This document shows, piece by piece, positions 6,001 through 55,290 of a stretch of DNA of 64,000 bases. Below the pieces are notes generated by a model, which was not told the origin of the DNA, did not search any database, and was given only the letters and a program-made list of their open reading frames with translations. The DNA is from an uncultured bacterium (GTDB taxonomy: Bacteria > UBP14 > UBA6098), in the NCBI GenBank assembly GCA_964459995.1, contig CAYWOR010000001.1, positions 145,328 through 209,327 of the forward strand. The letters are read 5' to 3'. Every line of letters begins with the position of its first letter. The first letter of the stretch is position 1. A program made the translations under genes and the position numbers.

Positions 6001-7445
6001 CGAAGGGCAAGATTGCTCTTATCGACATCGAACGCCCGACCATCGACACCGATCTCGTTATCGCCACCGGCGACAACCTGACCGCCTATGTCGGTGCTAT
6101 CTGGGACAACTTCATTGGCGACAACTTCACCAACGAGCTGGGTGACGGCTACGTTTACGTGATGGTTACCATCGAAGACACGATCCTCGTGGGTCCCTAC
6201 TGGGTGGATCCGAGCGGAGCTATTGCTACCTCCGGTTGGGGCGCTTACGGCCCGACTCCGGGTGACTTCATTGACCTCTGTGTCTATGACCTCGCAGGCA
6301 ACTATGTTTGCGTCGAAGTCGAAGTCGTTCCCGAAGTTCATTGCTGCACCTACAGTCTTTGCACCGATTGGAACCTCATCTCCATCAGCGTCAACCCCGA
6401 AACGCTTACTACGGCTGTCTTCGGTGGCGCTCCGGTTTACAAACTGGTCGGAGGCACCTATGTGCCCTACACCGGTATTCTTGAGCCGGGTGCTGGCTAT
6501 GCGGTTTACCCGCCGAGTGCAATGGAAGTTACTATCTGCGGCGCTCCTGTGACGTCTTTCGACGTTACCCTCAGTGCCGGTTGGAACCTGATTGGCGCTA
6601 CGTGGATGGATGTTCCGTTCACCGCTCCGGAGACCACTCCGGCTGGCGCGATCGACCCGACCGAAACTCGTTGGTATGAGTGCGGAGTTAACTATCACTA
6701 CACTAACGTTCTCGAACACTGCAGAGGCCACCTGGTCATGGTTACCAACCCGGCCGGTTGTGAGCTGAGTGTTCCGGGATCCCGTGGCGGCAAGGTCGTT
6801 TACACCGTCAAAGACGGTCAGTTCGACCCGCTGTTCACCGGCAAATTGGTTAGTGATAACCGCACCCTGACCTTCGGCGTTGCCGACATCGCCACCGCCA
6901 ACTTCGACCGCGGCATCGATCGCTACGCGATTCCGGCGCACGTTGGTCAGAGCGAGCTCGTTCTCGACGGCGGCATGGATGTCGATTACCGCACAACCGA
7001 TAGCAGGATCGAGTGGACCGTTAAGGCCACCGGTAACTACACTGCGACCTTCGAGAAGGAAGGCGACTGGGTCGTCTCTCTCGACGGAGTCCAGCTCGTT
7101 GACGGCGATGTCGTCACGATCACTTCGGGTTCGCACAAGCTGGTTGCCGACCGTGTCTCGGTTCCCGCGAACTTCGCTCTCGGTCAGAACCTTCCGAACC
7201 CGTTCAACGCAGTAACGGCGATCAAGTATGAGCTCCCGACGGACGCTACTGTAACCCTCGAGGTTTACACCGTCCTCGGTCAGAAAGTCGCTACGCTGGT
7301 TAACGGCGATCAGGAAGCCGGTTATCGCACCGTCGTTTGGGACGGAAACGATGACGAGGGTAGAGCTGTTCCGAGCGGAATCTATTTCTACAAGATTTCC
7401 GCCGGCGACTTCTCGGCGACTCGCAAGATGACCCTGATGAAGTAA
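1..7445 (+). CDS. Giant T9SS cargo protein, Trp/Tyr/Asp-rich, unknown function; 5' end lies outside the window (more than 2,450 aa in window)
   Basis: Frame 3 is open from nt 3, so the listed M at 159 is internal and there is no signal peptide at this N-terminus. The C-terminus carries a canonical type-A T9SS sorting domain (LGQNLPNPFNAVTAIKYELP...GIYFYKISAGDFSATRKMTLMK), then a stop and a stem-loop. No recognisable catalytic motifs. The long antisense ORFs (1362..4184, 5505..7460) are treated as shadows. Confidence 0.85.
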   Translation, partial: GGVGGSGINWRDFEITFAIEHCDLTWDTIRVNQNDLNRGIYVDEENNGYNARMWINFEELVLWHPSWAGLVPFRSGDFVYVLLTRLLDDPDYGQHWGVDECMLGDWTTTPPYWNQIYWVIDTIPSYSGTWGIANGADGNYGTRNTQDNHIPVMWEVVGVCPYYTEYAFDTLGILRIDLEGPTAPDTFYYPPHQWVTSDSFQIITLNIYDQIGCSNYDLDVQDLLRNRVSGVYSASVDQEARICVNLKVRGCDGSWHPYYHSGAGSIPDGRNFCVGEPDAVGLNLTKKYNEWGVRVTWDPYRTNTDQAHFRPGDKVCVTVYAWDNAITDCQYEPGTAGPVSGWDDDNDPWTSHRDSVNYSIYCSDGSLAHFVDATVPSRNSGYDRLDPDYLYYEVSHIARWTFFVDCHAPIFTGADMSQVCNDTMYLYFRDVSANVHGMYCDNWIANIGVQHTELVEGADLLLIFTDTMTTPGVTYVDTIIFQNMKLSGGAYPLNIHVAYHDIPGREYQYYYAELIKDPADDRGAYVQLYGDGSEATCHFFQPYDQIRWELYAGDSPDVPWYPATQRTVSGGRTYRWHHGFDSWSNPGTWFMSWRYGRHDYTGINVDTLDGPTFWEDTFYNNFENPNWALIKVDSLQIFSETWLSKVGWFNDEAYHAFMYPPHVYNYPPDLKGDYTNIWHAWMGRYRNTTPGGMTPVLLWEEGSPSRISPMQSRDPYVNFWVNDLNFIVADIYTCTDSIIWECLVGTHPDEDTLPFRVPRVTIDLYNAGRSHVWTIDEFYDCHCTPCFISYYPSRTACVDWGRMHVGPIDQTEQWLYTIRRIDTLETDPVLVTDTIVGWQHLDSISVRLEFNVREPNYFTDATHFTKYVFRWDYVVDMQPPTAIFRDPAATTGYDEVNCNLIHDSNHTLRLRLESIVDAHVGCAPGTLMADGWSSKWPIPAVAPSSDWVKFKYETTPPVAANMVWNPATHYLWSNESFVITNCALELNVADTMTIGTPGIQIYHGLNRSGPGFPVPLQTTLTRDTIFVADSVFAEAIIQDRLGNWTLKTSRKMALDNGLPEVKGFALATLGIDTVGYDSLGTPILGDVYMNDWDGAVFKLPWLVPDQDSLVGIYNFAPVCTVYVRLWFNDNMDMREADHLYGHIVRFKPHGWTHWFPVLPLETVGGGPTGLRFPLAQQYVDYKNIAGVMPSARPDASSETDLSPVIPGDVEALDAGWNSDREWVGYMVIAGGGAMDGIGTLRVQGFDDNAGNYMLPIEYPLRIVTGEPRFKMVYWPRIDTLNNAHVDPWSGLPDDVLVLSGWSTSDPVLGDSTRCTFYQDNDRMNPITAYWDNYLAETDSVRFRVFWHDTAWVPGAPLTGHTFHWSEDDMWSSNISVYRDTAWVVMPVSELDLLHEYYTTLGGAPVAYSNNELYATIVFEAFSRFRPSNPYIADTLLNVRIDNRRPDPQLTTLTGGQMIHGQHTMLPFGSTDLKVCWQNNQVEQIDKMSIWLHSLIDGADYMLFPAGGTPGQSFGAVGTSTPLYYDPVNGVICLDYRNPAGLPAGMWTLSWKAFDGIQVVDTARGGTILRYWQYYHTDCEFDFFTDDTLTILRPPFLARGDNLYDALRSVADNYPAVIGSDDIYPWWNVGMEDIWPDWPTFGWIDTAAIRAAGLPDLWRVDALHRVPQMVPVVQITTYNNPDYSSGVPDPLMHPYVESGGYPGDSLYVLLEMLETDVNVRYIDLNIKDYWGGNISGSNLQINVRLDSTHVVHYGDRSFWVYKWTVDDQDNRYDGLVTITASEYTYSPSTSTWNYWDHIAYVLLDTDDPTYEVSMIRTSDSSVPNIAINPIDFPDESRIWVVNADEFLINLDWDQTIYDPAAPGHPVSYHNYGRYIYTRQWDHWRISIDGAPNYGTYSDANDHLEARLWDNDLDPWDIHHPFWRQPDYMNTAITPSSYDNASPMWTFNDKIRFFADNVYAYAWDVAGIPEGLTAQGVAYILGKSRDAAGNVLDYEEARISKSKGKIALIDIERPTIDTDLVIATGDNLTAYVGAIWDNFIGDNFTNELGDGYVYVMVTIEDTILVGPYWVDPSGAIATSGWGAYGPTPGDFIDLCVYDLAGNYVCVEVEVVPEVHCCTYSLCTDWNLISISVNPETLTTAVFGGAPVYKLVGGTYVPYTGILEPGAGYAVYPPSAMEVTICGAPVTSFDVTLSAGWNLIGATWMDVPFTAPETTPAGAIDPTETRWYECGVNYHYTNVLEHCRGHLVMVTNPAGCELSVPGSRGGKVVYTVKDGQFDPLFTGKLVSDNRTLTFGVADIATANFDRGIDRYAIPAHVGQSELVLDGGMDVDYRTTDSRIEWTVKATGNYTATFEKEGDWVVSLDGVQLVDGDVVTITSGSHKLVADRVSVPANFALGQNLPNPFNAVTAIKYELPTDATVTLEVYTVLGQKVATLVNGDQEAGYRTVVWDGNDDEGRAVPSGIYFYKISAGDFSATRKMTLMK

Positions 7446-7463
7446 ACAGCCCAACTTCACAAG

Positions 7464-7490
7464 GCGGCGGGGCTACAAAGCCCCGCCGCC
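7464..7490 (+). terminator. GC-rich stem-loop (GGCGGCGGGGCT-acaa-AGCCCCGCCGCC) directly after the giant gene; no U-tract
   Basis: Perfect 12-bp inverted repeat 19 nt after the stop codon. It lacks the T-run of a classical intrinsic terminator. Confidence 0.45.
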
Positions 7491-7597
7491 GAATATAAAG
7501 CACCTTCCTTTTGGGGATGTTTGATTTTTTTAGGAATACATATTTTGAAACTCTATCGTTTATCTGAAACTTATTTTCAAAGAAAGGGGTAAGCCAT

Positions 7598-10500
7598 ATG
7601 TCCAGAGGCAAAATTACCTTAGTAGTAGCTCTTGCGCTTGCAAGTATGGTTCTTGCACAGAGTTGGAGTTTTACTTTTCAGGTCGAGCCCGTTCCGGGGC
7701 AGACACACGACCTTGAAATAGCGATGACTGCGGGAGCAACCGCAGGATATGACGCGTTCTTAGACGTCCCTTATTTTACGCCCCCCGATGGAAGGGGTGT
7801 TTTCTTCCCTCTTAACGATCCATTAAATCCCGCTTATACCAAACTCCAGAAGGATGTCCGCGGTATCGCACTCGGATCATATACCTATTGGATCGCAATG
7901 GACGAGGGATATTGGGGTCTCGATGACCGTATGGTTCGTTGGGATATCGACAATCTTCCCGATCCTGATATCTCCGGCAATCTTTGGATTGCTCCTATAG
8001 TTTATGGGACTGACCCTGCGACTCTCGATGAAGCTCTTTGGATTCCCATGAATACGGTCGAAGAATTCGGTTTCGGACCCACTCAGGAAGCCGCATTCAG
8101 GTTTATGCCTTCTGCAATGGTTGATACCATTGCTCCTTATGTTACCGGTTTCGATCCGGTTCCGGGAGAGGCTGGCGTATCCACAGCTAAGAATGTAAGA
8201 TTCGATGTCAAAGACGCCAACAGAGGCGTTGACCCCGCCACAATCGATGTTTGGGTTACCGTTGGCGGCGGAACTCCGGCTCATCTCGGACCTTCCGACA
8301 TGATTCTCGATCCCATCGTTGGCGGATATCGTGTAACGATTCCCCCGGTTGGCGGTGCTTGGCCTGAATCCACGATTATTAACTACACAGTTAATGCCTG
8401 CGATTTGGCGAGTCCTGCTAATTGCATGGATGTCGATACCTCAGTATCGTTCTTCACCCGTGTGATTCCGCCGGACATGTTCCCGCCCTATTTCGAAACC
8501 GCCTATCCGGCCAATGGTGCTACCGATGTCGATGTTACTTCCTGCGTAAGAATCGTCATTAAAGATTCTGAGAGCGGTGTCGATAGTAGCACAATAATCT
8601 TCCAGCTCAATGGAACAGCGATCCCGCATTCCGACCTTAACATCACTGAGCTTGGAGTCGGTTCGGATTGGTATCGCGTCGAATATTGCCCAACTTCCGA
8701 CCTCAACTATGGCGCTATCTATAATGTTAATGTTTACGCCGAGGATTTCTGGGGCAACGATGCTTCGATTACTTGGTCTTTCGTTACTGAAGAGGCGGAT
8801 TCGCTTCCCGAATTCGTTTATAATCTTCAAGCAATTTCGATTAGTGGAACCGATACCGCGAGAACCAATCTCTACATCGGCCTCGATAATCTTGGAACAG
8901 ACGGCTACGACGTCGGTCTCGATGTCCCGCAGTTCTTGTTCCCGGGTGCGCCGAGAGGTTATTTCCCGCTCATGGATCCGAGCCATCCCAGCGTTCCGGC
9001 CCTTTCGAGGGACATTCGCTCGACTTCCCATGGAATCAAAACATGGACAGTCGATATGTATAGCCCTGTTGGAACTTTGAAACTTACATGGGATAGACTC
9101 CTTCTTCCGCCGATCGGCATGTTCAGCTTCGCTGTTGTCGATAGCGGTTCCACACCGAGCGCTTGGACCTCGATGTCCACCTATGGTGAGGTAAGCTTTA
9201 CCTCCTCCCAGCAGGTTCTCATTCGCTTCCTCCCGACCTTGGTCGATCCTAATCCTCCTGTCGTAACAAATGTTTCGATGGAAGGATCCGGCCCGGGCGG
9301 AGTTGGCTATGATCCAGCAACACCGCTTTGCTTCAGCGTTGTGGATTATGAGTCCGGCGTCGATATAAGCTCTGTGGCAATTTCTATCGATTATGTCGAT
9401 ATCGACCTTGCGGAATTCGCGACCACTCCTCTGTCGAATGGTTACCGTTTCTGCTATACCCCGTCTCCGATGTGGTCGCCGAACACGACCTACAGAGTCG
9501 AGGTTCAGGCCGCGGACAATGCCATTCCGGCTAACGAAATCGACCCGCCCTATGTTTGGAACTTCTCGACCGGCCCGGCTGGTTGCGCTCCGTTGTTCGA
9601 GCTTCCCCTTACTTTCACATGGGGTGCTGGCGCGGATGAAAACGAGACGATCATTTTCGGAACCCACGAGGGTGCTTCCCCGGGTTATGATGCCGGTCTG
9701 GATCAGATTCAGCCTCCGCCCATCACCGCCGCCGGCTTCTTCTTCACTTGCGGCGATGCGGCTCCGGCAGACAAACTGATCAAGGACCTTCGCAATCCAT
9801 GCGACCGTCCGAACATCTGGCAGGCTTCCAAGAGAAATCTGCTTACCTCGCCGAATGTTACTGTTACATGGCCGACTTCTCCGGTTTTCGCGGATACTTC
9901 GTGGCATATCTACTACAAAGTTCTCGGATTGGGTGTTACCCCGCCGACCGCTGTTGACAGCACTTGGACCCGCATGAATGTTGGCGATGAAATCGTTTAC
10001 AATGCCAACTCGAATTATCTCTATGTCGGTCTCGGCTATATCGGAACCACAATCGAAGTCTTCAATATCGAAGGCGATGTTGCGATTGCCGGCGCTCCCG
10101 ATAACAGCGGAATCCGTGTTTACCTCAACGGCGGCACTTTCCGCACGACCAATGCGGCTGGCGAATACTCCTTCGCGAACATCCCGCTTGGAACTTATAA
10201 CTTAACATTCTGGGACCCGGCTGGCGAATACTGCGCGCATCCTGATATGGATTCGATCGTTGTGGTTACCGGCACTGTTCCCGATGCCACTATCGATGTT
10301 CCTACCTATCATATGCTCCCCTGCGGAAGCAGAAGAGTTTATGGTGTCGGTTCGGTTGCTGGAACGCCTACTCAGTGGATCAACGTGAAACTCACGAATC
10401 TCGGCGATCTTTCCGAATCCACAATTCCGACCAACGCTTCGGGAGCTTACCAGTTCCTCGGCGTTGTTCCGGGTGATTACATGCTGACCGCTTCCTATTC

Positions 10501-12364
10501 TGGATATCGCACTTGGGACACGACCTTCACGGTCGGTCTTACCGATGTCAACATAAACTTCAACCTGACCGAAACGACGGTTTTGGTTACAGGAATGGCA
10601 AGACTTAACAGCGTTCCTTCGCCTGGTATTACCATTAACGGATCAGCGGTTGCAACGCCGACGACGTCAATCGCCGACGGTTCTTACTCTGTGACAGCAA
10701 ATATCGGCGGTGGAAACATCTGTGCAAGCTATCCCGGTTACGAGACAGTTTGTCAGTTTGTTACCGTTCCTGAAACAGGTTTGACCGGTGTTGATTTCAA
10801 TCTTCTACCGTTGCCGGTGGATGTTATTGTCTCGGTCGATCTCGGTTGCGAAACCGTCAACATGTCGGGTGCTTCCGTTACGATGTCCGGTGTTGGAACA
10901 GAAATTACCCCCGCCAGCGGCAATGTCAGATTCGATGATGTCGCCCACGGATGGTATAATTTCACCGTTTCCGCTCCGTATCATGCAACGGTTGTTGTCG
11001 AAAGCGTCTATGTCAGCGCTGACACCACGATTAACGTTGCTCTCTGCTGTCTCGACGCCGTCGAAGATTTCGACGCTGATCCGGACAGTGTTGCACGCCC
11101 GACTGCCGATCCGCTGACCATTGCGCTCAGCTGGACCGAAGCCGGAACTTCCTGCTGTGATCCGGATTCTTATCTGGTTTACAGGTCGTTGGCACCGTTC
11201 ATTAGCACCACTGCCCCCGGCGTTACGAGAGTCGCTTCGGTTCCCTTCGGAACCACGACCTATGTCGATGCGACAGTTGCCGATGGCGTTCGTTACTACT
11301 ACGATATCGTCGTAGTCTATGGTTGCCCGAGCAATTATTCGAGACTTGCCGGCAATGTTAACGCGGCAAGCGCTTATACACCCGACCCGGCCGATTATCT
11401 GGTTATCGACTGGGACAACGGTGCGACCCCAACCAACGGCGGCACGATGGGTGTCGGCGAATGGTGGGTTAATATGCTCGGTTCCAGTGCGCTCGGTCTT
11501 TCGGCTGTTGTCAGAACAACCGACGATTCGCATAGCGATCCGCTTGCGGGCTATAACCTCAATGACTATGACTTGGTCGTTCTCGCGCTCGGTATCAACG
11601 ATGCGGACAACACCGTTCTTCCTACTGCGGCTGTTGCCAAGCTCGAAGCTTACAGAGCGATTAGCGGCAAAAAGATGATCATCGAAGGTCCCGATTTCGG
11701 TGCCGATTACAACGCAACCACTTTCTTCGGCAACCTCGGCCTTGCCTTCGTTCATGACGGCGCGGCTGACTTCAACGTCGATTGGTTCTATGCCACTCCG
11801 ACTTTGACGAATGCATCCTTCCCGATCATCTTCGATTACAACGACAGTAGTTCTGCTGACCATTTCGTCGATATCCTTAATTCTCCGGGTGTCTTGACAA
11901 CGAATGTCGCCTGGGATCAGGATTCGGTCTATAGGACATTCTTCTACAATGGCCCTTGCCAGACCATCATCTCGACGATTTATCTCGGCGGTATCGTTAA
12001 TTCGAGCTATCCGTATGTGCAGTCGCGTGCGGCTTCCGGTTATCTCTGGAAGCTCGGAATCGCCAACACCGGCATTTATCAGGTCGAAACGAAGCTCCCG
12101 AGCGATTTCGCGCTCGCGGGCAACTATCCGAACCCCTTCAACCCGGTTACCACGATCGAATTCCAGCTCCCGAGAGATTCTCATGTGGACGTTTCGATCT
12201 ATGACATCACCGGCAAGAGGGTTGAGACTCTGGTCGATGAAAGGCTCGAAGGCGGCGTTTACAAGGTCGCTTGGAACGCCAACAACATGCCCAGCGGTGT
12301 TTACTTCGCTCGCATGACCGCAGGTGAGTTCTCCGCAACTCACAAGGTTATGCTCGTCAAGTAA
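7598..12364 (+). CDS. Giant secreted T9SS cargo protein (1588 aa): N-terminal repeated GYD/GLD modules, 4 carboxypeptidase-regulatory-like beta-sandwich domains, Fn3, alpha/beta pre-CTD module, T9SS CTD
   Basis: SD AAAGGGG 7 nt upstream of the ATG. Signal peptide MSRGKITLVVALALASMVLAQS. CarbopepD_reg-like repeats (e.g. ...GEYSFANIPLGTYNLTF...). C-terminal LAGNYPNPFNPVTTIEFQLP...GVYFARMTAGEFSATHKVMLVK. A strong terminator follows. Confidence 0.9.
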   Translation: MSRGKITLVVALALASMVLAQSWSFTFQVEPVPGQTHDLEIAMTAGATAGYDAFLDVPYFTPPDGRGVFFPLNDPLNPAYTKLQKDVRGIALGSYTYWIAMDEGYWGLDDRMVRWDIDNLPDPDISGNLWIAPIVYGTDPATLDEALWIPMNTVEEFGFGPTQEAAFRFMPSAMVDTIAPYVTGFDPVPGEAGVSTAKNVRFDVKDANRGVDPATIDVWVTVGGGTPAHLGPSDMILDPIVGGYRVTIPPVGGAWPESTIINYTVNACDLASPANCMDVDTSVSFFTRVIPPDMFPPYFETAYPANGATDVDVTSCVRIVIKDSESGVDSSTIIFQLNGTAIPHSDLNITELGVGSDWYRVEYCPTSDLNYGAIYNVNVYAEDFWGNDASITWSFVTEEADSLPEFVYNLQAISISGTDTARTNLYIGLDNLGTDGYDVGLDVPQFLFPGAPRGYFPLMDPSHPSVPALSRDIRSTSHGIKTWTVDMYSPVGTLKLTWDRLLLPPIGMFSFAVVDSGSTPSAWTSMSTYGEVSFTSSQQVLIRFLPTLVDPNPPVVTNVSMEGSGPGGVGYDPATPLCFSVVDYESGVDISSVAISIDYVDIDLAEFATTPLSNGYRFCYTPSPMWSPNTTYRVEVQAADNAIPANEIDPPYVWNFSTGPAGCAPLFELPLTFTWGAGADENETIIFGTHEGASPGYDAGLDQIQPPPITAAGFFFTCGDAAPADKLIKDLRNPCDRPNIWQASKRNLLTSPNVTVTWPTSPVFADTSWHIYYKVLGLGVTPPTAVDSTWTRMNVGDEIVYNANSNYLYVGLGYIGTTIEVFNIEGDVAIAGAPDNSGIRVYLNGGTFRTTNAAGEYSFANIPLGTYNLTFWDPAGEYCAHPDMDSIVVVTGTVPDATIDVPTYHMLPCGSRRVYGVGSVAGTPTQWINVKLTNLGDLSESTIPTNASGAYQFLGVVPGDYMLTASYSGYRTWDTTFTVGLTDVNINFNLTETTVLVTGMARLNSVPSPGITINGSAVATPTTSIADGSYSVTANIGGGNICASYPGYETVCQFVTVPETGLTGVDFNLLPLPVDVIVSVDLGCETVNMSGASVTMSGVGTEITPASGNVRFDDVAHGWYNFTVSAPYHATVVVESVYVSADTTINVALCCLDAVEDFDADPDSVARPTADPLTIALSWTEAGTSCCDPDSYLVYRSLAPFISTTAPGVTRVASVPFGTTTYVDATVADGVRYYYDIVVVYGCPSNYSRLAGNVNAASAYTPDPADYLVIDWDNGATPTNGGTMGVGEWWVNMLGSSALGLSAVVRTTDDSHSDPLAGYNLNDYDLVVLALGINDADNTVLPTAAVAKLEAYRAISGKKMIIEGPDFGADYNATTFFGNLGLAFVHDGAADFNVDWFYATPTLTNASFPIIFDYNDSSSADHFVDILNSPGVLTTNVAWDQDSVYRTFFYNGPCQTIISTIYLGGIVNSSYPYVQSRAASGYLWKLGIANTGIYQVETKLPSDFALAGNYPNPFNPVTTIEFQLPRDSHVDVSIYDITGKRVETLVDERLEGGVYKVAWNANNMPSGVYFARMTAGEFSATHKVMLVK

Positions 12365-12382: not shown

Positions 12383-12420
12383 AAAAAAACCCTCCGTTTT
12401 ACGGAGGGTTTTTTGTTTTG
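12383..12420 (+). terminator. Rho-independent terminator (AAAAAAACCCTCCGTtttaCGGAGGGTTTTTTGTTTTG)
   Basis: 8-bp GC-rich stem, 4-nt loop and a T-tract, directly after the stop of 7598..12364. Confidence 0.9.
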
Positions 12421-16494: not shown

Positions 16495-17463
16495 CTATTT
16501 CATATAAACGACATTTTGAGTCTTTACGATTCCGCCGCTGACTGCCTTTACCAGATATGTTCCGGTCGGAAGGTCGTTCGATGGTGTGAACCGGACGAGA
16601 TGATAGCCCGTGAAAGCCGCCGTTTCCGCGATTTTCTCGATCATTCTGCCATTGACATCATAGATCGCTATCTCGATGGGGTTTCCATCGCCGGCAATGA
16701 GTATCGACATAGCCGAATTGAAAGGGTTCGGGAAACATCTCAGGCCGAAATCGCTCGGAACAACGACTCTCTCGGCAACATTTCCGGCATCGAGGTTGAA
16801 ATTGATAACCATATTTGCGCCACCGCCAACCACGAAAATCCCGTCGAGTTCATTGACATAGTGTGCATAAGGCTCTTGAAGGAAGCCGGTTGTATCGCAC
16901 ATGTTATTGCCGTTGAGATCGGACCAAACCAAAGCCGATTTCGCTCCCGAGGGGACGCTGTCAAGCTCGAAATCGAGCTCCTCAATTATCCAAGTGCCAT
17001 CGAGAACTGGGCCGCCGCCGAGTAACATGGGATATTGATCGAATATCCTCATCTTCAGGGAATCCGGGCTACCGCTATATATGATTGTGCCCTCCACGCC
17101 GCCATAGCGCGCGAGTTCGACATCGATACCGGAGATTGTTCCGCCGGAAATGCGGAAGGGGTTTCCGGGATACTGACCCGCAGGATCGCCGCTGGCAGGC
17201 GGAAGTCCCGAAGGGATGAGCGCCATAACATTGTAATCGTAGCCATCGAGGATGAACGGATCATCGAAGATGTAGTTGTAGTCCGGCGGAAATGCAAGCG
17301 TGTAGAAGAACGAGGTATCCATTAATGTCGTGAAATCGTGGAAAACGAAGACATAAGCCGTGTCCGTCGGTGTTCCGGGGACATTTAAAGTCCCCATTAT
17401 CATCCCCGCGAAAAGCCCGCTGGTCATAAGTGCGAGGATGATGATGATGTTGATTGTTCTCAT
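16495..17463 (-). CDS. Secreted T9SS cargo protein, 323 aa, unknown function
   Basis: The track ORF (to 17709) is trimmed to an ATG with an AAGGAG RBS that gives the signal peptide MRTINIIIILALMTSGLFAG. The longer form would overlap the upstream gene. C-terminal T9SS CTD (LRCFPNPFNSAMSILIAG...YLVKAVSGGIVKTQNVVYMK). Confidence 0.8.
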   Translation of the reverse strand: MRTINIIIILALMTSGLFAGMIMGTLNVPGTPTDTAYVFVFHDFTTLMDTSFFYTLAFPPDYNYIFDDPFILDGYDYNVMALIPSGLPPASGDPAGQYPGNPFRISGGTISGIDVELARYGGVEGTIIYSGSPDSLKMRIFDQYPMLLGGGPVLDGTWIIEELDFELDSVPSGAKSALVWSDLNGNNMCDTTGFLQEPYAHYVNELDGIFVVGGGANMVINFNLDAGNVAERVVVPSDFGLRCFPNPFNSAMSILIAGDGNPIEIAIYDVNGRMIEKIAETAAFTGYHLVRFTPSNDLPTGTYLVKAVSGGIVKTQNVVYMK

Positions 17464-17479
17464 ATTTTTTCTCCTTTCG

Positions 17480-19345
17480 TTATTCTCTAAGTTGGAAAAG
17501 CCCCTCTTCATCGAAGAGAAGCCAATAAGCCTCTCCGGGGAAGAATCTATCGCGAATTCTATAGCTTCCTGATGTTGTGGAACCTGCACGATCGTAATAA
17601 TAGAAAATTCTTCTTCCGATTGCGGTTTCGGGGATTTCGGAGATTGCAGTCGTGTCCGCACCGCCGTATTTTGAAAGCCCGCCGACGAATTCCCATCCGG
17701 GGCCGGCATTCATAAGTGTATACATATGAATCGGAATTCCTGTAACGGAATAGCTCCGTTCGTTGAGGACGAAAACGAAATAGCCCTTGCCCGGGGTCAG
17801 AATATCGGGGGCTATATAGTTGAGTAGGTCGGAATCCCACTCATAAACATACTCGGCACCCGGAAATGCGACATGCGGCGAAAGGCCGTCGTGGGGGATA
17901 ACCGGAAGACTGACAGCATTCCAGCCGGAATAAAGATGATAATATGCCGAGCTGTCGGCATGTTGAACGAGTGCGCGAATGTAATAATTCGTATCGGGCA
18001 CTTCGGTCCACGAGCCGCCGGGGGGAAGGTCCCAACCGTGGCCATACATCGACTGCCTTAGCGAGATTCCAAGCGAATGGTCAAGCTCGATTCCGAGATA
18101 AAAATCGCCGTCGAGAATAATCCGCTCCATTGCGACATTTATGCGCGCCCAGCCGGTGGAATTCAGCAGATAATCCCCGTAGCCGAGGATTTCGTCGCCA
18201 GGTTGACCGCGGTCGTCCAAGTAAATCTTCGGCGAACCGAACCCTGGATTGCTGATGTGGTAATCTATTGCGATGAGCCTACAACGTGTATCGACACGGA
18301 ATTTATTCGCGATAACCGCGCCGGGGTAAGACACCGCGGCCGACGGTGGAATTCCGTCGTCATAAAGCAACGTGTCGTAGATTAGAGTTCCGACGGCGTT
18401 ATATGCTGTTCCTGCGGCTGTATCCGATGGCGGACTGAGGAATGCACCGCTGTCGTATTCCGCGCGGACAGTGTAATAATAAGTGTTTCCAGGGGTAACG
18501 GCATAATCGTCGTAGGTAGTTTCGCTTGCGGGAACAATCGCGAGGGGCGAGAAAATCCCATGGTAGGTGCTGGCGCGATAGATTCTATAGGAATCCGGAC
18601 GTATCATCGAGGTCGCTTCGGTGGGACGCATACTCGGTTCCGGCGATGGATGATAGGAGCGCGAGAAGATTTCCGAAAAACCCGGCTCGTGAGGGATTTC
18701 ATAAACAGTTTTACCCGGTGAAATATACACAGTAGCTCGAGTGCGAGATTCCAAATACAGAACCTCCAGTCGGACGAGAAGATCGCCGGAAAGCTGACGC
18801 CAGCCATACATATAGTGATATTGATAAGACCTCGGCGAGCCGGGCGTTATCGAAGAATCCATTAGAATATACATCTGCGGAAGCGCATCGCCCTTGGAAA
18901 TTCGGACAAACAGCTCGTCATAAACGACGAGACCGGCGTCGCTAACATCGACATTGTTCCAGCCGACTGTAACGGGGGTGTATCTTGTCGGCAGAAGCAC
19001 ATTGCTGTAATCCGGCAGGCCGACATGGTTCACGCCATACATATTGATATTGACCGCACGTGAACCGAGCATAAGGAAAAGGTTGAACTGCACCGAAAGG
19101 ATGCTACACGGCTCGGCGGGGGAGAATTTCACGGCGCACATTCCGCTGTCGAGGTCTATCTCGCGCGAGCCTATGCCGTTATCGTATTTGATTGTGTCCG
19201 AGATGATTATCGGCGGGGGAGGCGTCCATTCGAGTCCGATATGGTCGGTGAAGAACGAATAGGCGACAAGCCCTGAAGGCGCCGGCCATTGTGCCATAAG
19301 GCCAACTGCCGCTAAAAGCATTACGGCGAGACAAATTCTTTTCAT
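17480..19345 (-). CDS. Secreted protein with an Fn3-like domain, 621 aa, unknown function (no T9SS CTD)
   Basis: Signal peptide MKRICLAVMLLAAVGLMAQ and an AGGAG RBS. An Fn3-like segment (YRIYRASTYHGIFSPLAIVPASETTYDDYAVTPGNTYYYTVRA). It starts 7 nt after the dapB stop. Confidence 0.75.
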   Translation of the reverse strand: MKRICLAVMLLAAVGLMAQWPAPSGLVAYSFFTDHIGLEWTPPPPIIISDTIKYDNGIGSREIDLDSGMCAVKFSPAEPCSILSVQFNLFLMLGSRAVNINMYGVNHVGLPDYSNVLLPTRYTPVTVGWNNVDVSDAGLVVYDELFVRISKGDALPQMYILMDSSITPGSPRSYQYHYMYGWRQLSGDLLVRLEVLYLESRTRATVYISPGKTVYEIPHEPGFSEIFSRSYHPSPEPSMRPTEATSMIRPDSYRIYRASTYHGIFSPLAIVPASETTYDDYAVTPGNTYYYTVRAEYDSGAFLSPPSDTAAGTAYNAVGTLIYDTLLYDDGIPPSAAVSYPGAVIANKFRVDTRCRLIAIDYHISNPGFGSPKIYLDDRGQPGDEILGYGDYLLNSTGWARINVAMERIILDGDFYLGIELDHSLGISLRQSMYGHGWDLPPGGSWTEVPDTNYYIRALVQHADSSAYYHLYSGWNAVSLPVIPHDGLSPHVAFPGAEYVYEWDSDLLNYIAPDILTPGKGYFVFVLNERSYSVTGIPIHMYTLMNAGPGWEFVGGLSKYGGADTTAISEIPETAIGRRIFYYYDRAGSTTSGSYRIRDRFFPGEAYWLLFDEEGLFQLRE

Positions 19346-23416: not shown

Positions 23417-24679
23417 TCATCGTTTCGCCGGTGTTTTCAGCGGCAGAAGGACGAAATAGCCGGAAGCAATCAGTAAAAGTAATGATACGACTGCGCCTCG
23501 ATAGGCGATATTCTCCCCGAGCGGTTCGAGGACAAGAACCACAATTCCCCAGATAAGCGGCCCGACGATTGCGGCGGCCTTGCCGGACAGCGAAAAAAGG
23601 CCGAAAAATCTTCCGACTGCCTCCGGAGGGGCAAGCTCGACCAAAAGCGGACGCGCCGCGGTTGGAACTCCTCCAAGCAATGCGCCAATGAACACGCCGA
23701 GAATATAGAAGGGCAATTCACTCGTAACCGGCAACAGCAGAACAAGGCTAATTATCCATCCCACAAGCACATACGACAAAATACGTTTCGCCGAATATGT
23801 GTCTGTGAGCCTTCCGAAAATCCACGACCCTATCGCCGCACCGATTGTCGAAATGATAAAAAACGGCACCTTCGAGGAATCGGGCATCCCCATCGCCTTC
23901 TGAGAATAAACCGCCATGAAAACGATAGCGGTCTGAATGCCCTCTTGGAATAGAAAATTCGCAAGGAGAAAACGGCGTATTCCGGGATATTTTTTGGAAT
24001 CGCGAAGGGTCTCGATAATCTTCTCGAAGGGGTTTTCCTTTGCGGCCATCGGCTGGGGTTTCGATTTTTCGCGCACCCATATAAAGGTCGGCAACGAAAA
24101 TAAGAAAAAAAGTATCGCGGATGGAACAAAGGTAGCAGATCTTCCACCAGCCGCTATGAAAGGCACATCCCACCCCAGAAGAGTGCCCTCGTTGAAGGGC
24201 ATAACGATGAGCATCCCGAAAATCGCGCCGACATATCCCAGCGCGACTCCGACCCCGCTAACCCATCCCATTTTCCCCGCCGGCGCGATGTCCGGCAGAA
24301 GCGAGTTATAGAACACGAGGCCAAGATGATAGCTGGTATTTGCGACAACGAAAAGTGCGAGCAATAGAAATGCGCTTTGCCCGTGCCCCGCGGCGATGCC
24401 TATCAACGCGGTTGTCGCGCAACAGAGAAAGGTCGCGAAGAATAAAGAGGGTTTCCTTCGCCCGACGATGTCGGTTCGTTGTCCTAGAAGGGGCGAAAGA
24501 AGGACGACCAGAATCATCGATATGCTTGTCGCGAGGCTGTAGTGGAGAGGCTTTTTGCCGAGAGTGTCGATGATGTAAACCGCAAAATAAAGCGAGACGA
24601 CATTCATGGAAAAAATCGTGTCGGCGAAATCGAACATCGCCCACGCGAAAATTCTTCCCTTGGATGTCGGCTGGGTCAT
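23417..24679 (-). CDS. MFS-type transporter (420 aa, about 12 TM)
   Basis: Hydrophobicity pattern of a 12-TM permease. A DxxGRR-like loop (GQRTDIVGRRKP) after TM2. It starts 3 nt after the HD-protein stop, so the two are co-transcribed. Confidence 0.7.
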   Translation of the reverse strand: MTQPTSKGRIFAWAMFDFADTIFSMNVVSLYFAVYIIDTLGKKPLHYSLATSISMILVVLLSPLLGQRTDIVGRRKPSLFFATFLCCATTALIGIAAGHGQSAFLLLALFVVANTSYHLGLVFYNSLLPDIAPAGKMGWVSGVGVALGYVGAIFGMLIVMPFNEGTLLGWDVPFIAAGGRSATFVPSAILFFLFSLPTFIWVREKSKPQPMAAKENPFEKIIETLRDSKKYPGIRRFLLANFLFQEGIQTAIVFMAVYSQKAMGMPDSSKVPFFIISTIGAAIGSWIFGRLTDTYSAKRILSYVLVGWIISLVLLLPVTSELPFYILGVFIGALLGGVPTAARPLLVELAPPEAVGRFFGLFSLSGKAAAIVGPLIWGIVVLVLEPLGENIAYRGAVVSLLLLIASGYFVLLPLKTPAKR

Positions 24680-24682: not shown

Positions 24683-25234
24683 TTAAAGCCCCAGTTCCGA
24701 ATCGATTGACTGCATCGCTTTGAGCGTGATTTCCACGAACTCTTCCAGGTCGATGCCGATTTTGGCGCATTTGCGAATCTGGTCGCGATCGACATTAGCG
24801 GAGAAGCGCTTTTCATCGAAACGGCGCATCAGAAAATCCATGTCGAGCGATTTGAGCTTGCGATCGGGGTGCATCAGCGTTGCCGAGATGACGAGTCCGG
24901 TAAGCCCATCGACCGCGTGAAGCGCCCAATCCATGGGACTTTCCGGCGGACAGGATTCGTGGGCGGGGTGTGCTTTGACCGCGTGGACGATGTCCGGGTC
25001 CACGCCCTCTGCCTCGAGCATTTCTGCGGAAAGATTCCCGTGGCGGGCGAAATCGTGCTCGGTTCGGTCATAATCGAGGTCGTGGAGAAGTCCTGCAAGC
25101 GCCCATTTTTCGGGGTCTTCGTCGAGTCTTAGCGCGAGGGCTTTCATTGCGGCCTCCGCGGCAAGCATATGCTTGATAAGGTTCTTTTTTGCGACATTTT
25201 TCTCGACGAGTGCGAGGGCTTCTTCGCGGGTCAT
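24683..25234 (-). CDS. HD-domain phosphohydrolase (184 aa)
   Basis: Trimmed from the track start at 25276: GGGAGG lies 5 nt before the ATG at 25234, giving an MTREEAL start. HD motif H...HD (KHMLAAEAAMKALA ... AGLLHDLDYDRT). Confidence 0.75.
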   Translation of the reverse strand: MTREEALALVEKNVAKKNLIKHMLAAEAAMKALALRLDEDPEKWALAGLLHDLDYDRTEHDFARHGNLSAEMLEAEGVDPDIVHAVKAHPAHESCPPESPMDWALHAVDGLTGLVISATLMHPDRKLKSLDMDFLMRRFDEKRFSANVDRDQIRKCAKIGIDLEEFVEITLKAMQSIDSELGL

Positions 25235-25330
25235 TTTGCCTCCCGTTTTTCGGATAAGATAGTTGCGCAAGACCACTTTGGCAAGTCAAACTCCCGTTTT
25301 TTGACGGACGAACCATTGGAGTTGCGAAAA

Positions 25331-25410
25331 GGTTGCATCAAATGTATTCAAATAGTGTAAAATTGCATACATTTGCATGCAATTGTATGCAAATAGAATA
25401 CAATTGCATC
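25331..25410. promoter_or_regulatory. Array of five TTGCAT/ATGCAA half-sites including a 24-nt near-perfect palindrome ATTTGCATGCAATTGTATGCAAAT (candidate operator in a divergent intergenic region)
   Basis: TTGCAT at about 25333, 25363, 25373 and 25403, and inverted (ATGCAA) at 25387. Dyad 25371-25394 with 22/24 symmetric positions. It is centred about 137 bp upstream of the HD gene (-) and about 200 bp upstream of the BamB-like gene (+). Confidence 0.5.
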
Positions 25411-25591
25411 AGATAGAATCAAATCTAACAAAAAAAAATGGCGACACTCAAATTCTGCGTCCGCTAATTTCGATTTTCCAACGCCCACTTCAATTTCCCA
25501 TTTCGTTGTGCGGAAAATCGGCGTTCACAAACTGTGGTTTTGAATATATATAGGTTGCGATTCTGGGCAAATAAATTTATTTTAATAAATT

Positions 25592-26710
25592 ATGAAAAAA
25601 CTCATCGCAATATTATTACCGTTGGTTTTCATGGGTTGCGCCGGTGTGATTCGAGTTCCCGAGCCCGATGTCCAAACCGTTCCATGGCCGGTTCCGCGCG
25701 GAGACTGCATGAACTGGGCCTCTGCCGGAAGGGATGAGGGCGGTCTTGTCGAACTATGGCGTATCAAGCTGAAAGTGCCGATTATCGCGACACCGGTAGC
25801 CGGCGACGGCGCTGTGTTCATAGGCACAGGCACGCGCCGTGTGATCGCGGTGAACGCAAACACCGGCAAGCGAATCGGCAAGATGTGGACGGATGTTGCA
25901 GTCGAGGACGGCATGGCCTATTCGGACGGCAGGCTGGTTATCGGTGGCAGAAGCATTTACAACAAGCTGAGATGCTACGATGTTTTTCGAAGCGAGTTTG
26001 TTTGGACGAAGAAGAGCGACAGAGCGGCTTCAGCGCCGGTTGTTTGCGGCGGACGAGTTTTCTATTCGACCGCAAAGGGCGCTCTTTTCGCTCTCGAACT
26101 CGAAACCGGCGAAAGAATATGGCGCAAAGAGCTTAAGGACGCGGTTATCGAGCACGAACCGGCATTTCGTGACAGCTTGCTTTTTGTCGTCGATCAAAAT
26201 GGGATGTTCTATTGCATCGACGCCGATTCGGGCGATGAGGTTTGGTCACTGAAAGTCCCTACGAGCGCTTCAGGGCCGCCTGTGGTAATCCCCGACCATG
26301 TGATTTTGCCGACCCACTCCGGCAGAATTCTCGTTATAACGCTCGACGGCAGAGTTCGAGTCGAGATAGATGCCCCCGGTGAGCTTATCGCGCCGATTTC
26401 CTGTGGAGGCCCTACAGTTTTCGGTGTAACTCGTCGCGGAGTGGCTTTTGCAGGGGATTTGGGCGAGGGCGGAATTTTGTGGCAATCGAATATCGAAGAG
26501 CCATCCCTTTGCGGAACGGTGATTTGGGGCACGGACATTGTAACGATAGGCGCTTCGGGGCGGATTTCGCTCATCGATTACGGCAATGGCGAGATAACAT
26601 CGCAAATCGAAACGAAAGCCTTCATCACCGCAGGGCCGATAATCTACGACTCGAAGCTTTTTGTGGCGACCTCGGAGGGCGAGCTTATCGCCATCGGCAG
26701 AAAAAATTAG
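25592..26710 (+). CDS. PQQ-like beta-propeller repeat lipoprotein (BamB-like), 372 aa
   Basis: Lipoprotein signal MKKLIAILLPLVFMGCAG. Repeated PQQ/BamB-type blades (VFIGTGTRRVIAVNANTGKRIGKMW; VFYSTAKGALFALELETGERIWR; MFYCIDADSGDEVWS; ...). Confidence 0.75.
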   Translation: MKKLIAILLPLVFMGCAGVIRVPEPDVQTVPWPVPRGDCMNWASAGRDEGGLVELWRIKLKVPIIATPVAGDGAVFIGTGTRRVIAVNANTGKRIGKMWTDVAVEDGMAYSDGRLVIGGRSIYNKLRCYDVFRSEFVWTKKSDRAASAPVVCGGRVFYSTAKGALFALELETGERIWRKELKDAVIEHEPAFRDSLLFVVDQNGMFYCIDADSGDEVWSLKVPTSASGPPVVIPDHVILPTHSGRILVITLDGRVRVEIDAPGELIAPISCGGPTVFGVTRRGVAFAGDLGEGGILWQSNIEEPSLCGTVIWGTDIVTIGASGRISLIDYGNGEITSQIETKAFITAGPIIYDSKLFVATSEGELIAIGRKN

Positions 26711-26724
26711 AACGGAGTTATAAA

Positions 26725-28329
26725 ATGAACGATAACTATCTTGAAAACATCGACCCGACCGACCATCGCGCGGTTCGTCTCGCGAAGGCCGACTATCTTC
26801 GCAAATCCGGCATCGACCCATATCCGGCGAGAACTCCGGATGGGCGCGTTACAATCGAATCGATTCGTAATGATTGGAAGAATGCTGTTCAGCAAACCGA
26901 CGAGAACCACCAAGTTTCGCGCCATGGTGCGATTAGACGCCTTGCGGGACGCATAACCGCAGTTCGGTCGCACGGCAAATCCTCATTTGTGGCTATTCAG
27001 GACGGCACCGGTAGCTTTCAGTTGTATTTCAAAAAGAACACGGTCGAGGAAAAAATGGCTGACGAATCGGCCTATGACCGCATCAAAGAGCTTGATATCG
27101 GCGATTTTGTAACAGCAGAGGGCGAGCTTTTCACCACGCGCACCGGCGAGGCGACTCTCGCTGTGCATAACTGGCAGATGCTCTCGAAATCGCTCCTGCC
27201 GATGCCGGAAAAATACCACGGCCTCACGGACCCGGATTTGCGCCTGCGACAGCGCTATCTCGACCTTCTTGCGAACCCTGAAGTCAAGCGAAACCTGACA
27301 ATCCGCGCGCTTGTAATCCGCACGATTCGGGAGTTTCTCGAGGCAGAGGGTTATATCGAACTGGAAACCCCTGCGTTGACACCTCTCTACGGCGGTGCGG
27401 CGGCAAGACCGTTTATGACGCACCATAACGCGCTGGATATCGGGCTGTATCTGCGCATCGCGACGGAGCTTTACCTTAAGAGGCTTATCGTTGGCGGATT
27501 TGAGCGAGTTTACGAGATGGGGAAAGTCTTTCGCAATGAGGGGGTCGATCGCGACCATAATCCTGAGTTCACACTTCTCGAACTGTATGAGGCGTATGCC
27601 GACTACAACCGGATGATGGAGCTTGCAGAGGGCTTGGTTATAGCTTCTGCGCGGGTGGTGGCGGAGTTTCAGAGCATAAATCCGCTTGTCGATAAAGAGG
27701 GTGCGGAGTTGCCGAATTGCCTCAAAGTGTCTGATGATAAGGTTTTCATGTGTTTGGATGGCGCGGATGTGCCGATCGAGAGACCGTTTCCGCGTAAATC
27801 CTTTGTTGAGGCCATTCTTAACGCGACCGAAATCGATGTCCTTTGCGCCGAAAAGGGCGACCTTGTGGCATATTTCAAAAAGCACGACATCGATTTCAAC
27901 CCGAATCTGCCCTACTGGCCGCTTGTCGATAAGCTTTTCTCGGAGACCGTGGAGCCAAAGCTTGTCGAGCCGATATTCCTAATCGATTATCCTGTGGGGC
28001 TTTCGCCGCTGGCAAAGCGCAAAAGCGACAATTCCGAATTGACAGAACGATTTGAACTATTCATCATGGGCAAAGAAATCGCGAACGCTTTCAGCGAGCT
28101 TAACGACCCTATAGATCAGCGCGCGCGAATGGAATATCAGGTTGAACAGGCCAAACATGGCGACGAGGACGCGCCAAATGTTGTTGACGAGGATTTTCTT
28201 ACCGCGCTCGAGCATGGAATGCCGCCCACGGGCGGAATGGGGGTCGGGATAGGCCGTCTGGTGGCGATTTTGGCGGGTGCTCATGCAATAAAAGATGTAA
28301 TCCCCTTCCCGCTGGTCAAGCCGAGATAA
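26725..28329 (+). CDS. lysS: Lysine--tRNA ligase (class II), 534 aa
   Basis: Trimmed from the track ORF 26479 to the ATG at 26725 with a GGAG RBS. An N-terminal OB anticodon-binding fold. Class II motifs (FRNEG ... ELFIMGKEIANAFSELNDPIDQ ... GGMGVGIGRLVAIL). Confidence 0.9.
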   Translation: MNDNYLENIDPTDHRAVRLAKADYLRKSGIDPYPARTPDGRVTIESIRNDWKNAVQQTDENHQVSRHGAIRRLAGRITAVRSHGKSSFVAIQDGTGSFQLYFKKNTVEEKMADESAYDRIKELDIGDFVTAEGELFTTRTGEATLAVHNWQMLSKSLLPMPEKYHGLTDPDLRLRQRYLDLLANPEVKRNLTIRALVIRTIREFLEAEGYIELETPALTPLYGGAAARPFMTHHNALDIGLYLRIATELYLKRLIVGGFERVYEMGKVFRNEGVDRDHNPEFTLLELYEAYADYNRMMELAEGLVIASARVVAEFQSINPLVDKEGAELPNCLKVSDDKVFMCLDGADVPIERPFPRKSFVEAILNATEIDVLCAEKGDLVAYFKKHDIDFNPNLPYWPLVDKLFSETVEPKLVEPIFLIDYPVGLSPLAKRKSDNSELTERFELFIMGKEIANAFSELNDPIDQRARMEYQVEQAKHGDEDAPNVVDEDFLTALEHGMPPTGGMGVGIGRLVAILAGAHAIKDVIPFPLVKPR

Positions 28330-42509: not shown

Positions 42510-42846
42510 CTGAACTCCTTTTCTTCTTCTTTGGGCCGTAGAGAGAATCGGCCGCCTCTATTTTTTTCGCAAAAAGCTCCATTGCATCGCGCTTTTGAAA
42601 GGCGCGGCGCAATATTTGAAGCTCTTTGATATTGAACAAATAAACCGTAATCGGTTCGACTAATAGCATCAGCTGACTGCTGACCCAATTTAAGGGTTTG
42701 AAACTTTCGACAAGCATAAGTGCCGGCACAGTTAATCTGCGCTCCACTATCTCTTTTGCAAGTTTCTCAAAAAGCGCGATTTCATCTTCCTGAATCTCAT
42801 CGGAGAATTCTTTGTCCCAATCGACATGCCAGAAATCCTCGCGCAT
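42502..42846 (-). CDS. Small acidic protein, unknown function (114 aa)
   Basis: Trimmed to the ATG at 42846 (MREDFWHVDWDKEF...), 1 nt after the upstream stop. Its 3' end overlaps the GlmL-like start by 8 nt. Confidence 0.5.
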   Translation of the reverse strand: MREDFWHVDWDKEFSDEIQEDEIALFEKLAKEIVERRLTVPALMLVESFKPLNWVSSQLMLLVEPITVYLFNIKELQILRRAFQKRDAMELFAKKIEAADSLYGPKKKKRSSDE

Positions 42847-47333: not shown

Positions 47334-47345
47334 CGTAATACCCTC

Positions 47346-47606
47346 CTACCTGTAAATTTCGACGGTGAAAGGAACCAGAGCGATGAAACGTGCCCGTTTG
47401 ATTTCTTTCGCGATGCGTCTTTGGTGTTTGTTGCAGGTTCCGCTGATTCTTTTGGCTACGATTTTTCCGCGATCCGATAAATACTTTTTCATCAGCTCGA
47501 CATTTTTGTAGTCGATAGGGACCTGAGGATTATCGCAGAAGTAGCAGAACCTCTTCTTACCGAAGCGGTGGAATCTCCGCTTACTAACCTTCCGTTGTTG
47601 TGCCAC
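47346..47606 (-). CDS. rpsR: 30S ribosomal protein S18 (GTG start)
   Basis: The track ORF extends to 47651. The GTG at 47604-47606 is preceded by AAGGAGGTG and gives (M)AQQRKVSKRRFHRFGKKRFCYFCD... S18 signature. Confidence 0.9.
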   Translation of the reverse strand: MAQQRKVSKRRFHRFGKKRFCYFCDNPQVPIDYKNVELMKKYLSDRGKIVAKRISGTCNKHQRRIAKEIKRARFIALVPFTVEIYR

Positions 47607-48012: not shown

Positions 48013-48018
48013 CTTCAC

Positions 48019-55282: not shown

Positions 55283-55290
55283 AAGAAAGA

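Follow-up and report, generated by a model that had tools for sequence, protein, structure and literature searches.

A tandem array of 10-bp units between divergent operons of an uncultured bacterium: possible core of a small, lineage-specific intergenic repeat

Background

The sites read by regulators of the OmpR/PhoB family, among them the four decameric tor boxes of Escherichia coli torC, the OmpR sites F1–F3 and the pho boxes, are phased direct repeats in which consecutive head-to-tail units of 10–11 bp present themselves on the same side of the helix and are occupied by tandem winged-helix proteins. The Correia elements (Correia repeat enclosed elements, CREE) of Neisseria are short intergenic insertions with 26-bp terminal inverted repeats, a TA target duplication and an IHF site, present in hundreds of copies. 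BrickBuilt of Porphyromonas gingivalis, one of the miniature inverted-repeat transposable elements (MITEs), is intergenic, carries an internal array of spacerless tandem repeats and shows bidirectional promoter activity (PMC4596501). The MarR-family regulator HsmR of Clostridioides difficile is a dimer whose structurally characterised operator is a 22-bp pseudo-palindrome, ATTAGTTTGTATGCAAACCATT (PMC12541388). Here we analyse an array of short repeats and palindromes located between two divergent operons in 64,000 nucleotides of DNA from an uncultured bacterium (assembly GCA_964459995.1, contig CAYWOR010000001.1, positions 145,328 to 209,327), a stretch that we call the window and whose first letter is position 1. 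The operon on the minus strand contains genes for an HD-domain phosphohydrolase and a major facilitator superfamily (MFS) transporter, and that on the plus strand begins with a gene for a BamB-like lipoprotein followed by lysS.

A reading of this region from its sequence alone, hereafter the sequence-only reading, had described the array as a set of operators for a dimeric transcription factor. Our preferred reading, held with about even confidence, is that the array is the conserved core (~75–95 bp) of a small, non-coding, lineage-specific MITE-like intergenic repeat and not an ancestral operator. The core consists of about ten head-to-tail units and belongs to an insert placed between two older core promoters of the sigma-70 type.

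Results and discussion

A lineage-specific insert between two retained promoters

The 357-bp AT-rich gap between the HD/MFS operon and the BamB-like gene had been described correctly in the sequence-only reading, in its length as well as in its AT-richness; that the gene after the BamB-like gene is lysS had been overlooked. The gap (locus 1) is organised as follows:

25235–25591, intergenic spacer between the HD and BamB-like genes, 357 bp, 36.7% GC against 51.4% in the window
25256–25284, minus strand, core promoter of the HD/MFS operon, TTGCCA-N17-TATCTT
25287–25292, plus strand, left copy of the direct repeat CAAACT, flanking the insert
25293–25527, no strand assigned, lineage-specific insert of ~235 bp that bears the array, found in the window and in L081–L083 and not in L084–L086
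25426–25527, no strand assigned, right part of the insert, with a run of nine A (A9) at 25430–25438 and 61.5% identity to L083
25528–25533, plus strand, right copy of CAAACT, flanking the insert
25555–25583, plus strand, core promoter of the BamB-like/lysS operon, TTGCGA-N17-TATTTT

A graded series of BamB-like orthologues, running from 92% down to 48% identity, was drawn from a large protein collection, and the contigs that encode them were compared (labels beginning with L denote contigs). The gene order MFS, HD, BamB-like, lysS, receptor is identical in L081–L088. The spacers at locus 1 are:

Window and L081 (same strain), 357 bp, array present
L082 (second strain, 99.1% DNA identity to the window), 356 bp, array present
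L083 (BamB identity 92%), 336 bp, array present
L084 (BamB identity 75%), 117 bp, array absent
L085 (assembly GCA_964606695.1; BamB identity 73%), 115 bp, array absent
L086 (BamB identity 70%), 117 bp, array absent
L087 and L088 (BamB identity 61%), 233 bp of unrelated filler, array absent

The short spacers of L084–L086 correspond exactly to the two ends of the window spacer, with both core promoters retained, which delimits the extra DNA to about 25293–25527. In L084–L086 the two CAAACT copies that flank it have one counterpart in the alignment, an AAA(C/G)T stretch at the junction, and both copies are kept in L083; the pair is suggestive of a target-site duplication, although a repeat of 6 bp is no proof of one. 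The insert entered the spacer in the common ancestor of the window species and its 92%-identity sister. Like a MITE, it is short (~235 bp), non-coding and intergenic, and presence/absence at orthologous sites is seen both here and at the second locus described below. A coding insert was considered and rejected: the only open reading frame (ORF) that spans it, 25377–25553, is frameshifted in L082, where the A9 run is A8 (L082 2840–2847). This is one of four differences from L082 in the right part of the insert, and the four make up a share of the few strain differences found across 7 kb. In L087 the place between the core promoters (2768–3000) is taken by the unrelated 233-bp filler.

A second copy in the same lineage

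A metagenome collection was scanned with one 23-mer from the array, and two contigs matched outside locus 1. The sequence shared with this second locus is:

25339–25411, plus strand, conserved core shared with locus 2 (L093, L094, L106–L108, L111, L112), by blastn and nhmmer

The locus-2 copy is 73 bp long and 87.7% identical to 25339–25411 (blastn, E 2.7e-20), and beyond the array edges the similarity stops. Every copy scores 80–86 bits with an nhmmer profile built from the array. The locus-2 copy lies in a gap of 238 bp where lptG and a gene for a 5'-nucleotidase with a type IX secretion tail converge with their 3' ends. In GCA_964606695.1 (L109) the stop codons of these two genes are 12 bp apart and the block is absent; with its 115-bp spacer at locus 1, this assembly is empty at both loci. 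The extra DNA at locus 2 amounts to ~226 bp, similar in size to the insert at locus 1. Three observations assign locus 2 to the lineage of the window: one metagenome contains both L111 (locus 2) and L082 (locus 1), as its contigs 26 and 28, strain divergence is alike at the two loci (L094 versus L111, 99.3% identity; window versus L082, 99.1%), and the tetranucleotide correlation of locus 2 with the window, 0.93, equals that of the window's sister strain.

The sequence-only reading had suggested that the motif may define a regulon elsewhere in the genome. A related sequence does recur, but what recurs is a whole block, and it lies between convergent 3' ends, which does not describe a regulon. 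Since the scan that found it did not pick up several contigs in which the block is known to occur, two loci are a lower bound. No further array copies were detected in the window by exact or one-mismatch search with TTGCATGCAA, and neither blastn-short with the insert nor the nhmmer array profile, run against the window and related loci (~100 kb), gave copies beyond the two loci. Eleven viral contigs matched a 16-mer with nothing past the seed and were put down to chance; the plasmid collection yielded a single insignificant match, and six-frame peptides, used in a protein database to find spurious ORF calls over other copies, had no matches.

One such call accompanies locus 2 itself. In L111 the public annotation has a 63-aa gene at 2550–2741 (minus strand), running across the insert of locus 2. 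Its start falls within the array and it overlaps the lptG end; it looks spurious, a product of the repeat's open reading frames. Elsewhere in this neighbourhood, L110 has a 507-bp gap after lptG (1543–2049) with palindromes of G/C runs and a twice-repeated GTCATTTCGAAGCGAAG..GAGAAATCTCC motif. The spacers of L087 and L110 may be insertion hot spots that have received other repeat families.

Within the insert, conservation is confined to the core

Four-fold degenerate sites of the window and L083 agree at 72% in the BamB-like gene and at 67% in the MFS gene. The successive parts of the spacer show the following identities to L083:

HD core promoter, 91%
Left part of the insert, 77.5%
Array, 87% (core, 89%)
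Right part of the insert, 61.5%, with a 20-bp deletion
BamB-like core promoter, 95%

The identity of the array exceeds a neutral expectation of 70% with a binomial p of ~7e-5, which that of its flanks within the insert does not. Within the insert, only the core resists divergence, and the right part evolves at or below the neutral level. The sequence-only reading had looked to orthologous spacers for conservation of the array, which is found in L083 (87–89%) and fails in L084–L086 and L087, where the array is missing. The paralogous cores of the two loci are 88% identical and nothing convincing is shared outside them.

These figures bear on the possibility that the repeat is functionless, a decaying minisatellite or insertion remnant whose conservation reflects a small sample, AT mutation bias or gene conversion. 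The array is indeed restricted to one lineage and dispensable in relatives, neighbouring spacers of the clade acquire other, unrelated fillers (L087, L110), individual hexamers are gained and lost, and the conservation test compares one species pair only. Against this stand the sharp contrast within the insert (array 87–89%, flanks 62–78%), the 88% identity of paralogous cores whose flanks are unrecognisable, and the preservation of unit phasing in three diverged versions, in which the block is kept and individual dyads and hexamers are not. We consider a functionless remnant improbable, the least favoured of the explanations discussed here.

Tandem units and the palindromes that they generate

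The structure of the array accounts for the features that first drew attention to it. Its elements are:

25333–25432, no strand assigned, tandem array of about ten 10-bp units, consensus TWGMATNMAA, from Tandem Repeats Finder (TRF), self-identity and a unit table
25363–25392, no strand assigned, palindrome of 30 nt, TTGCATACATTTGCATGCAATTGTATGCAA, 28/30 self-complementary, its centre 5 bp off that of the 24-mer
25371–25394, no strand assigned, palindrome of 24 nt, ATTTGCATGCAATTGTATGCAAAT, 22/24 self-complementary
25373–25382, perfect 10-mer palindrome TTGCATGCAA, inside the 24-mer

Over 25333–25419, TRF reports periods of 10 bp (4.8 copies), 20 bp and 41 bp (1.9 copies, 83% matches), and at lags of 10 and 41 alike the self-identity of the array reaches 0.58, compared with 0.32 ± 0.05 in shuffles; the ten or so units form two 41-bp higher-order repeats. 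In register, units 1–5 read TTGCATCAAA, TGTATTCAAA, TAGTGTAAAA, TTGCATACAT and TTGCATGCAA, and units 6–10 read TTGTATGCAA(A), TAGAATACAA, TTGCATCAGA, TAGAATCAAA and TCTAACAAAA. Positions 1, 3, 5, 6 and 9 of the unit (T, G, A, T, A) are nearly fixed among 27 units from three diverged copies. This 10- and 41-bp periodicity had been overlooked, as had the 30-nt palindrome, which surpasses the 24-mer; the 24-mer and its perfect 10-mer core are themselves as originally reported. Since the repeated unit TTGCATGCAA is itself palindromic, overlapping dyads arise along the array: the 24-mer, the 30-mer and an imperfect inverted repeat that spans the whole block (33-nt arms, 76% complementary). The TTGCAT palindromes are by-products of the tandem 10-bp units.

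The hexamer cluster is real. TTGCAT starts on the plus strand at 25333, 25363, 25373 and 25404 and occurs on the minus strand at 25377–25382 and 25387–25392, so that 77 bp (25333–25409) hold six TTGCAT/ATGCAA hexamers, 6 of the 26 in the window. The cluster of half-sites described earlier therefore stands, with a count of six in place of five and with the copy given as about 25403 lying at 25404. When the 357-bp spacer, or the 108-bp array alone, is shuffled with its dinucleotides preserved, six or more hexamers arise once in 20,000 trials, and at the window-wide rate the Poisson probability of the cluster is ~1e-12, which makes chance an untenable explanation. TTGCAT is not enriched across the window (26 observed, 34 expected), yet locally it is non-random.

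Neither the hexamers nor the dyads are stable. The counts of TTGCAT/ATGCAA across the versions are 6, 5, 4 and 4, hexamers having been gained at some positions and lost at others. At the position aligned to the 24-mer the dyad score falls to 20/24 in L082, 10/25 in L083 and 16/24 at locus 2; the best dyad is located differently in each homologous copy, and the symmetry axes are not conserved. Predicted single-strand folding is more stable than that of shuffled sequences (z about −3.5 to −3.9), and the structures differ among the window, L083 and locus 2. That dyads, hexamers and hairpins all vary among versions argues against one conserved DNA or RNA structure. An RNA gene or riboswitch was rejected, there being no tRNA, no Rfam family at gathering score and no conserved fold; below the gathering score Rfam gave only meaningless miRNA-type matches (E 0.1–0.7). 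A sigma-54 promoter was rejected as well: TTGCAT resembles the −12 element, but no copy has GG at the required upstream distance. An IHF site, DnaA box, dif, parS and integron attC were also compared with the sequence, and none fits.

In an approximate wedge model, the predicted curvature of the array falls in the top 0.1–0.2% of the window; its end-to-end ratio in the same model is 0.757, where the mean is 0.958. The two highest peaks predicted by this approximate model in the window, both above the array, are at 12393–12400 and 42563–42569; one of them is just upstream of a DUF4388 gene, beside a terminator-like hairpin.

The operator reading holds that a dimeric factor encoded elsewhere binds the array cooperatively to control HD/MFS, BamB-like/lysS or both, and that the motif marks a regulon. 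The non-randomness of the array, its conservation above the neutral level and its second occurrence within the lineage agree with this, as do the dyads of 22/24 and 28/30 with sites one helical turn apart, and the number of hexamers stays high despite turnover of sites, as in homotypic site clusters. The operator of HsmR, moreover, contains TTTGTATGCAAA (PMC12541388), a 12-mer that L083 matches perfectly and the window with one mismatch, a resemblance which indicates that winged-helix dimers can read such sequences. However, the array is missing from three syntenic species that retain both promoters, its second copy, set where two 3' ends converge, has no gene to regulate, and the dyad axes are not conserved. 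Its copies share spacer positions in addition to motif positions, which points to descent by duplication, and neither the 64-kb window nor ~100 kb of related loci contains a further match to the motif. No regulator gene was found among the larger ORFs of the window (two long ones, at 51087–58947, were not scanned), in agreement with the earlier remark that none is adjacent. Nor does the array overlap either core promoter: at 84–258 bp upstream of the inferred starts, it could act only as a distal activator or looping site. We consider the operator reading unlikely.

Promoters of the flanking operons and a promoter-like site in the block

The two core promoters themselves are conserved. That of HD/MFS reads TTGCGA-N17-TATCTT in L084, and that of BamB-like/lysS has the same hexamers and spacing in L083–L087, its second hexamer being TATTTT or TATCTT across the short spacers of the relatives. 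The array lies 84–176 bp upstream of the inferred HD start and 166–258 bp upstream of the inferred BamB start, and at least 50 bp from either −35 element. The ATG of the BamB-like gene comes 8 nt past the second hexamer and no Shine-Dalgarno sequence precedes it (25555–25594), a geometry conserved in L083–L087, which makes a leaderless BamB-like/lysS mRNA probable. The divergent HD gene differs in having a ribosome-binding site, GGGAGG.

A third site lies within the block:

25372–25399, plus strand, promoter-like TTTGCA-N16-TAGAAT, 9/12 in a consensus scan, predicted start near 25406

This site raises the possibility that the block is a portable promoter, in which a curved upstream region and TTTGCA-N16-TAGAAT would drive transcription rightward from ~25406; the output would be a long-leader BamB-like/lysS transcript or a small RNA and, at locus 2, a transcript antisense to the 5'-nucleotidase gene. 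Besides the score of 9/12, TAGAAT and the next 12 nt are invariant in every copy, and conservation of the core ends near 25406, with similarity between paralogues stopping ~12 nt after TAGAAT, so that the block would span about −67 to +5 of the putative start. The DNA upstream is curved in the approximate prediction, and a MITE with promoter activity is known in BrickBuilt (PMC4596501). On the other hand, only TAGAAT is constant, the first hexamer being TATGCA in L082 and TTCGAA at locus 2, and the consensus scan found 3 sites where chance would give 1.5. The invariant stretch extends over 25 nt, beyond the hexamers; the region downstream is neutral, with indels, no conserved fold and no Rfam family; and sense output at locus 1 against antisense output at locus 2 follows no common logic. 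We regard the portable-promoter explanation as quite unlikely. The internal site is nevertheless a serious candidate for an alternative or additional role of the block.

A repeat core as a possible binding platform

On the MITE-like reading, the core would have been retained by selection as a sequence-specific platform, probably a protein-binding one. With the 10-bp phasing, the T-G-AT--AA positions of one unit after another would point to much the same side of a helix that is predicted to be strongly curved, an arrangement in which a protein encoded elsewhere could bind in several copies side by side. Candidate binders are a regulator, a nucleoid or topology protein, or the transposase by which the element was formerly mobilised. 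The most plausible effect of bound or bent DNA 84–176 bp upstream of the HD/MFS start would be to modulate the HD/MFS promoter; it could also insulate the divergent promoters from one another; the leaderless BamB-like/lysS promoter, 166–258 bp away, is a less likely target. With the array 84–258 bp from the inferred starts, distal modulation or insulation is likelier than classic repression. The proposal of cooperative dimer operators is partly supported: the array is non-random, conserved between two species and recurrent, but lineage restriction, distance from the promoters, the convergent second copy and the shifting dyads tell against it.

Several points weigh against the MITE-like reading itself. 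Protein binding by the array is plausible but purely inferred, and the curvature comes from an approximate model. A 6-bp repeat such as CAAACT has, by our estimate, a chance expectation of roughly 10%, and no recognisable target duplication was found at locus 2. The sole candidate for terminal inverted repeats is an unconvincing 18-nt pair, 78% complementary, at 25305–25322 and 25446–25463; inspection of the ends of the insert showed no clear inverted repeat, and the 18-nt pair is not located there. Outside the array, a comparison of 25417–25545 with the reverse complement of the locus-2 flank beats 300 of 300 mononucleotide shuffles, but its score is reached in 9 of 1000 dinucleotide shuffles, and in 78 of 1000 without the A run. 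Homology of the whole inserts, strong by the first test and only marginal by the second, was therefore not relied on, and the mobile unit is left undefined. The known loci carrying the block number at least two and could be just two, and among the larger ORFs scanned in the window there is no transposase gene and no gene for a REP-associated tyrosine transposase (RAYT; REP, repetitive extragenic palindromic sequence). Finally, the conservation test uses one species pair and sets an AT-rich spacer against GC-richer codon positions.

In a more specific version, the array would be a portable platform, maintained by selection, on which a DNA-binding protein peculiar to the lineage docks, for instance a domesticated transposase or a nucleoid or topology protein; the platform would have been seeded by transposition at sites of high torsional stress (the divergent promoters here, the convergent lptG and 5'-nucleotidase ends at locus 2), or else a case of regulon wiring by a mobile cis-element. 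We consider this a long shot. If true, it would represent an independent invention, in an uncultured lineage of the Fibrobacteres–Chlorobi–Bacteroidetes (FCB) group, of a role proposed for enterobacterial REP sequences and bacterial interspersed mosaic elements (BIME).

Small intergenic repeats are almost unstudied in uncultured phyla, and the loci described here form a natural experiment, in which sister genomes have or lack the block between the same promoters and a second copy sits in another context. Were the block to bind a protein or drive transcription, it would be a mobile cis-element rewiring essential operons (lysS, BamB-like, lptG); were it inert, it would still mark insertion hot spots useful for strain typing of metagenome-assembled genomes. 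Arrays of palindromes in divergent promoter regions need not be resident operators.

Flanking genes and placement of the lineage

The genes next to the spacer are:

23417–24679, minus strand, MFS transporter gene, 420 aa, Pfam MFS_1 and ATG22
24683–25234, minus strand, HD-domain (HDIG) phosphohydrolase gene, 183 aa, Pfam HD 1.2e-11 and TIGR00277 HDIG, gene call in L081
25592–26710, plus strand, BamB-like PQQ-repeat lipoprotein gene, 372 aa, Pfam PQQ_2 4.1e-32
26725–28329, plus strand, lysS, lysine-tRNA ligase (class II tRNA synthetase), NF001756 592 bits against a cut-off of 468

The BamB-like protein scores below the NCBIfam cut-off for the BamB equivalog. The lysS gene begins 14 nt 3' of the BamB-like gene and is followed by a gene for a TonB-dependent receptor; its true ATG is at 26725, preceded by GGAG, and the longest ORF (26479–28329) places the start too early. 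The type IX secretion C-terminal sorting domains (Por_Secre_tail, CHU_C) of several very large or secreted proteins encoded at 159–12364 and 16495–17709 of the window and at 1871–3730 of L094, together with TonB receptors that have CarboxypepD_reg domains, support placement in the FCB group. The nearest labelled homologues are from Zixibacteria and KSB1, at only 38–50% identity, and a search of species-representative genomes with the lysine-tRNA ligase found no close relative (best 41–49% identity). Some 970 bp upstream of rplI (47334–48307) contain no ORF of at least 120 aa and probably hold small genes.

Comparison with known systems

The block would belong to the broad class of small intergenic repeats and MITE-like elements rather than to the operator arrays, and it is not categorically new. 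With OmpR/PhoB-family sites it shares several phased units of ~10 bp placed head to tail. Those sites, however, abut or overlap the −35 element and stay with their gene, whereas the array is at least 50 bp away, has no counterpart in syntenic relatives and has its second copy outside a promoter context. The 12-mer TTTGTATGCAAA common to the array and the HsmR operator is a resemblance, not a sign of membership: the latter is a single operator adjoining its own regulator gene in an unrelated phylum, and no MarR gene was found among the larger ORFs scanned in the window. Correia elements likewise bring promoter-like sequences and protein-binding sites beside resident genes and vary in presence between related genomes, but their 26-bp terminal repeats, TA duplication, IHF site and high copy number are not seen for the insert.

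REP sequences and the REPINs formed from them, which are mobilised by RAYT proteins, resemble the array in their imperfect palindromes and in the inverted pair of ~80 bp that is able to fold (PMC3116915, PMC3337134, PMC3733652), as well as in their location outside genes, including between convergent gene ends (PMC3116915, PMC3337134). They differ in occurring in tens to hundreds of copies, most with a GTAG or CGTC end tag; neither tag (PMC3733652) is present in 25333–25425, the ORFs scanned in the window include no RAYT gene, and the hairpins predicted for the array differ between homologues.

The closest described counterpart is BrickBuilt. Its unit is 23 nt long, it has 19 copies per genome and its ends are small inverted repeats, whereas the array has a partly palindromic unit of 10 nt, at least two copies, unconvincing inverted ends and no sequence similarity to BrickBuilt. 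The two nevertheless share the same general design: both are small, non-coding, always intergenic elements of the FCB group, restricted to a lineage or species, in which a tandem array is set between a non-repeat leader and a non-repeat tail.

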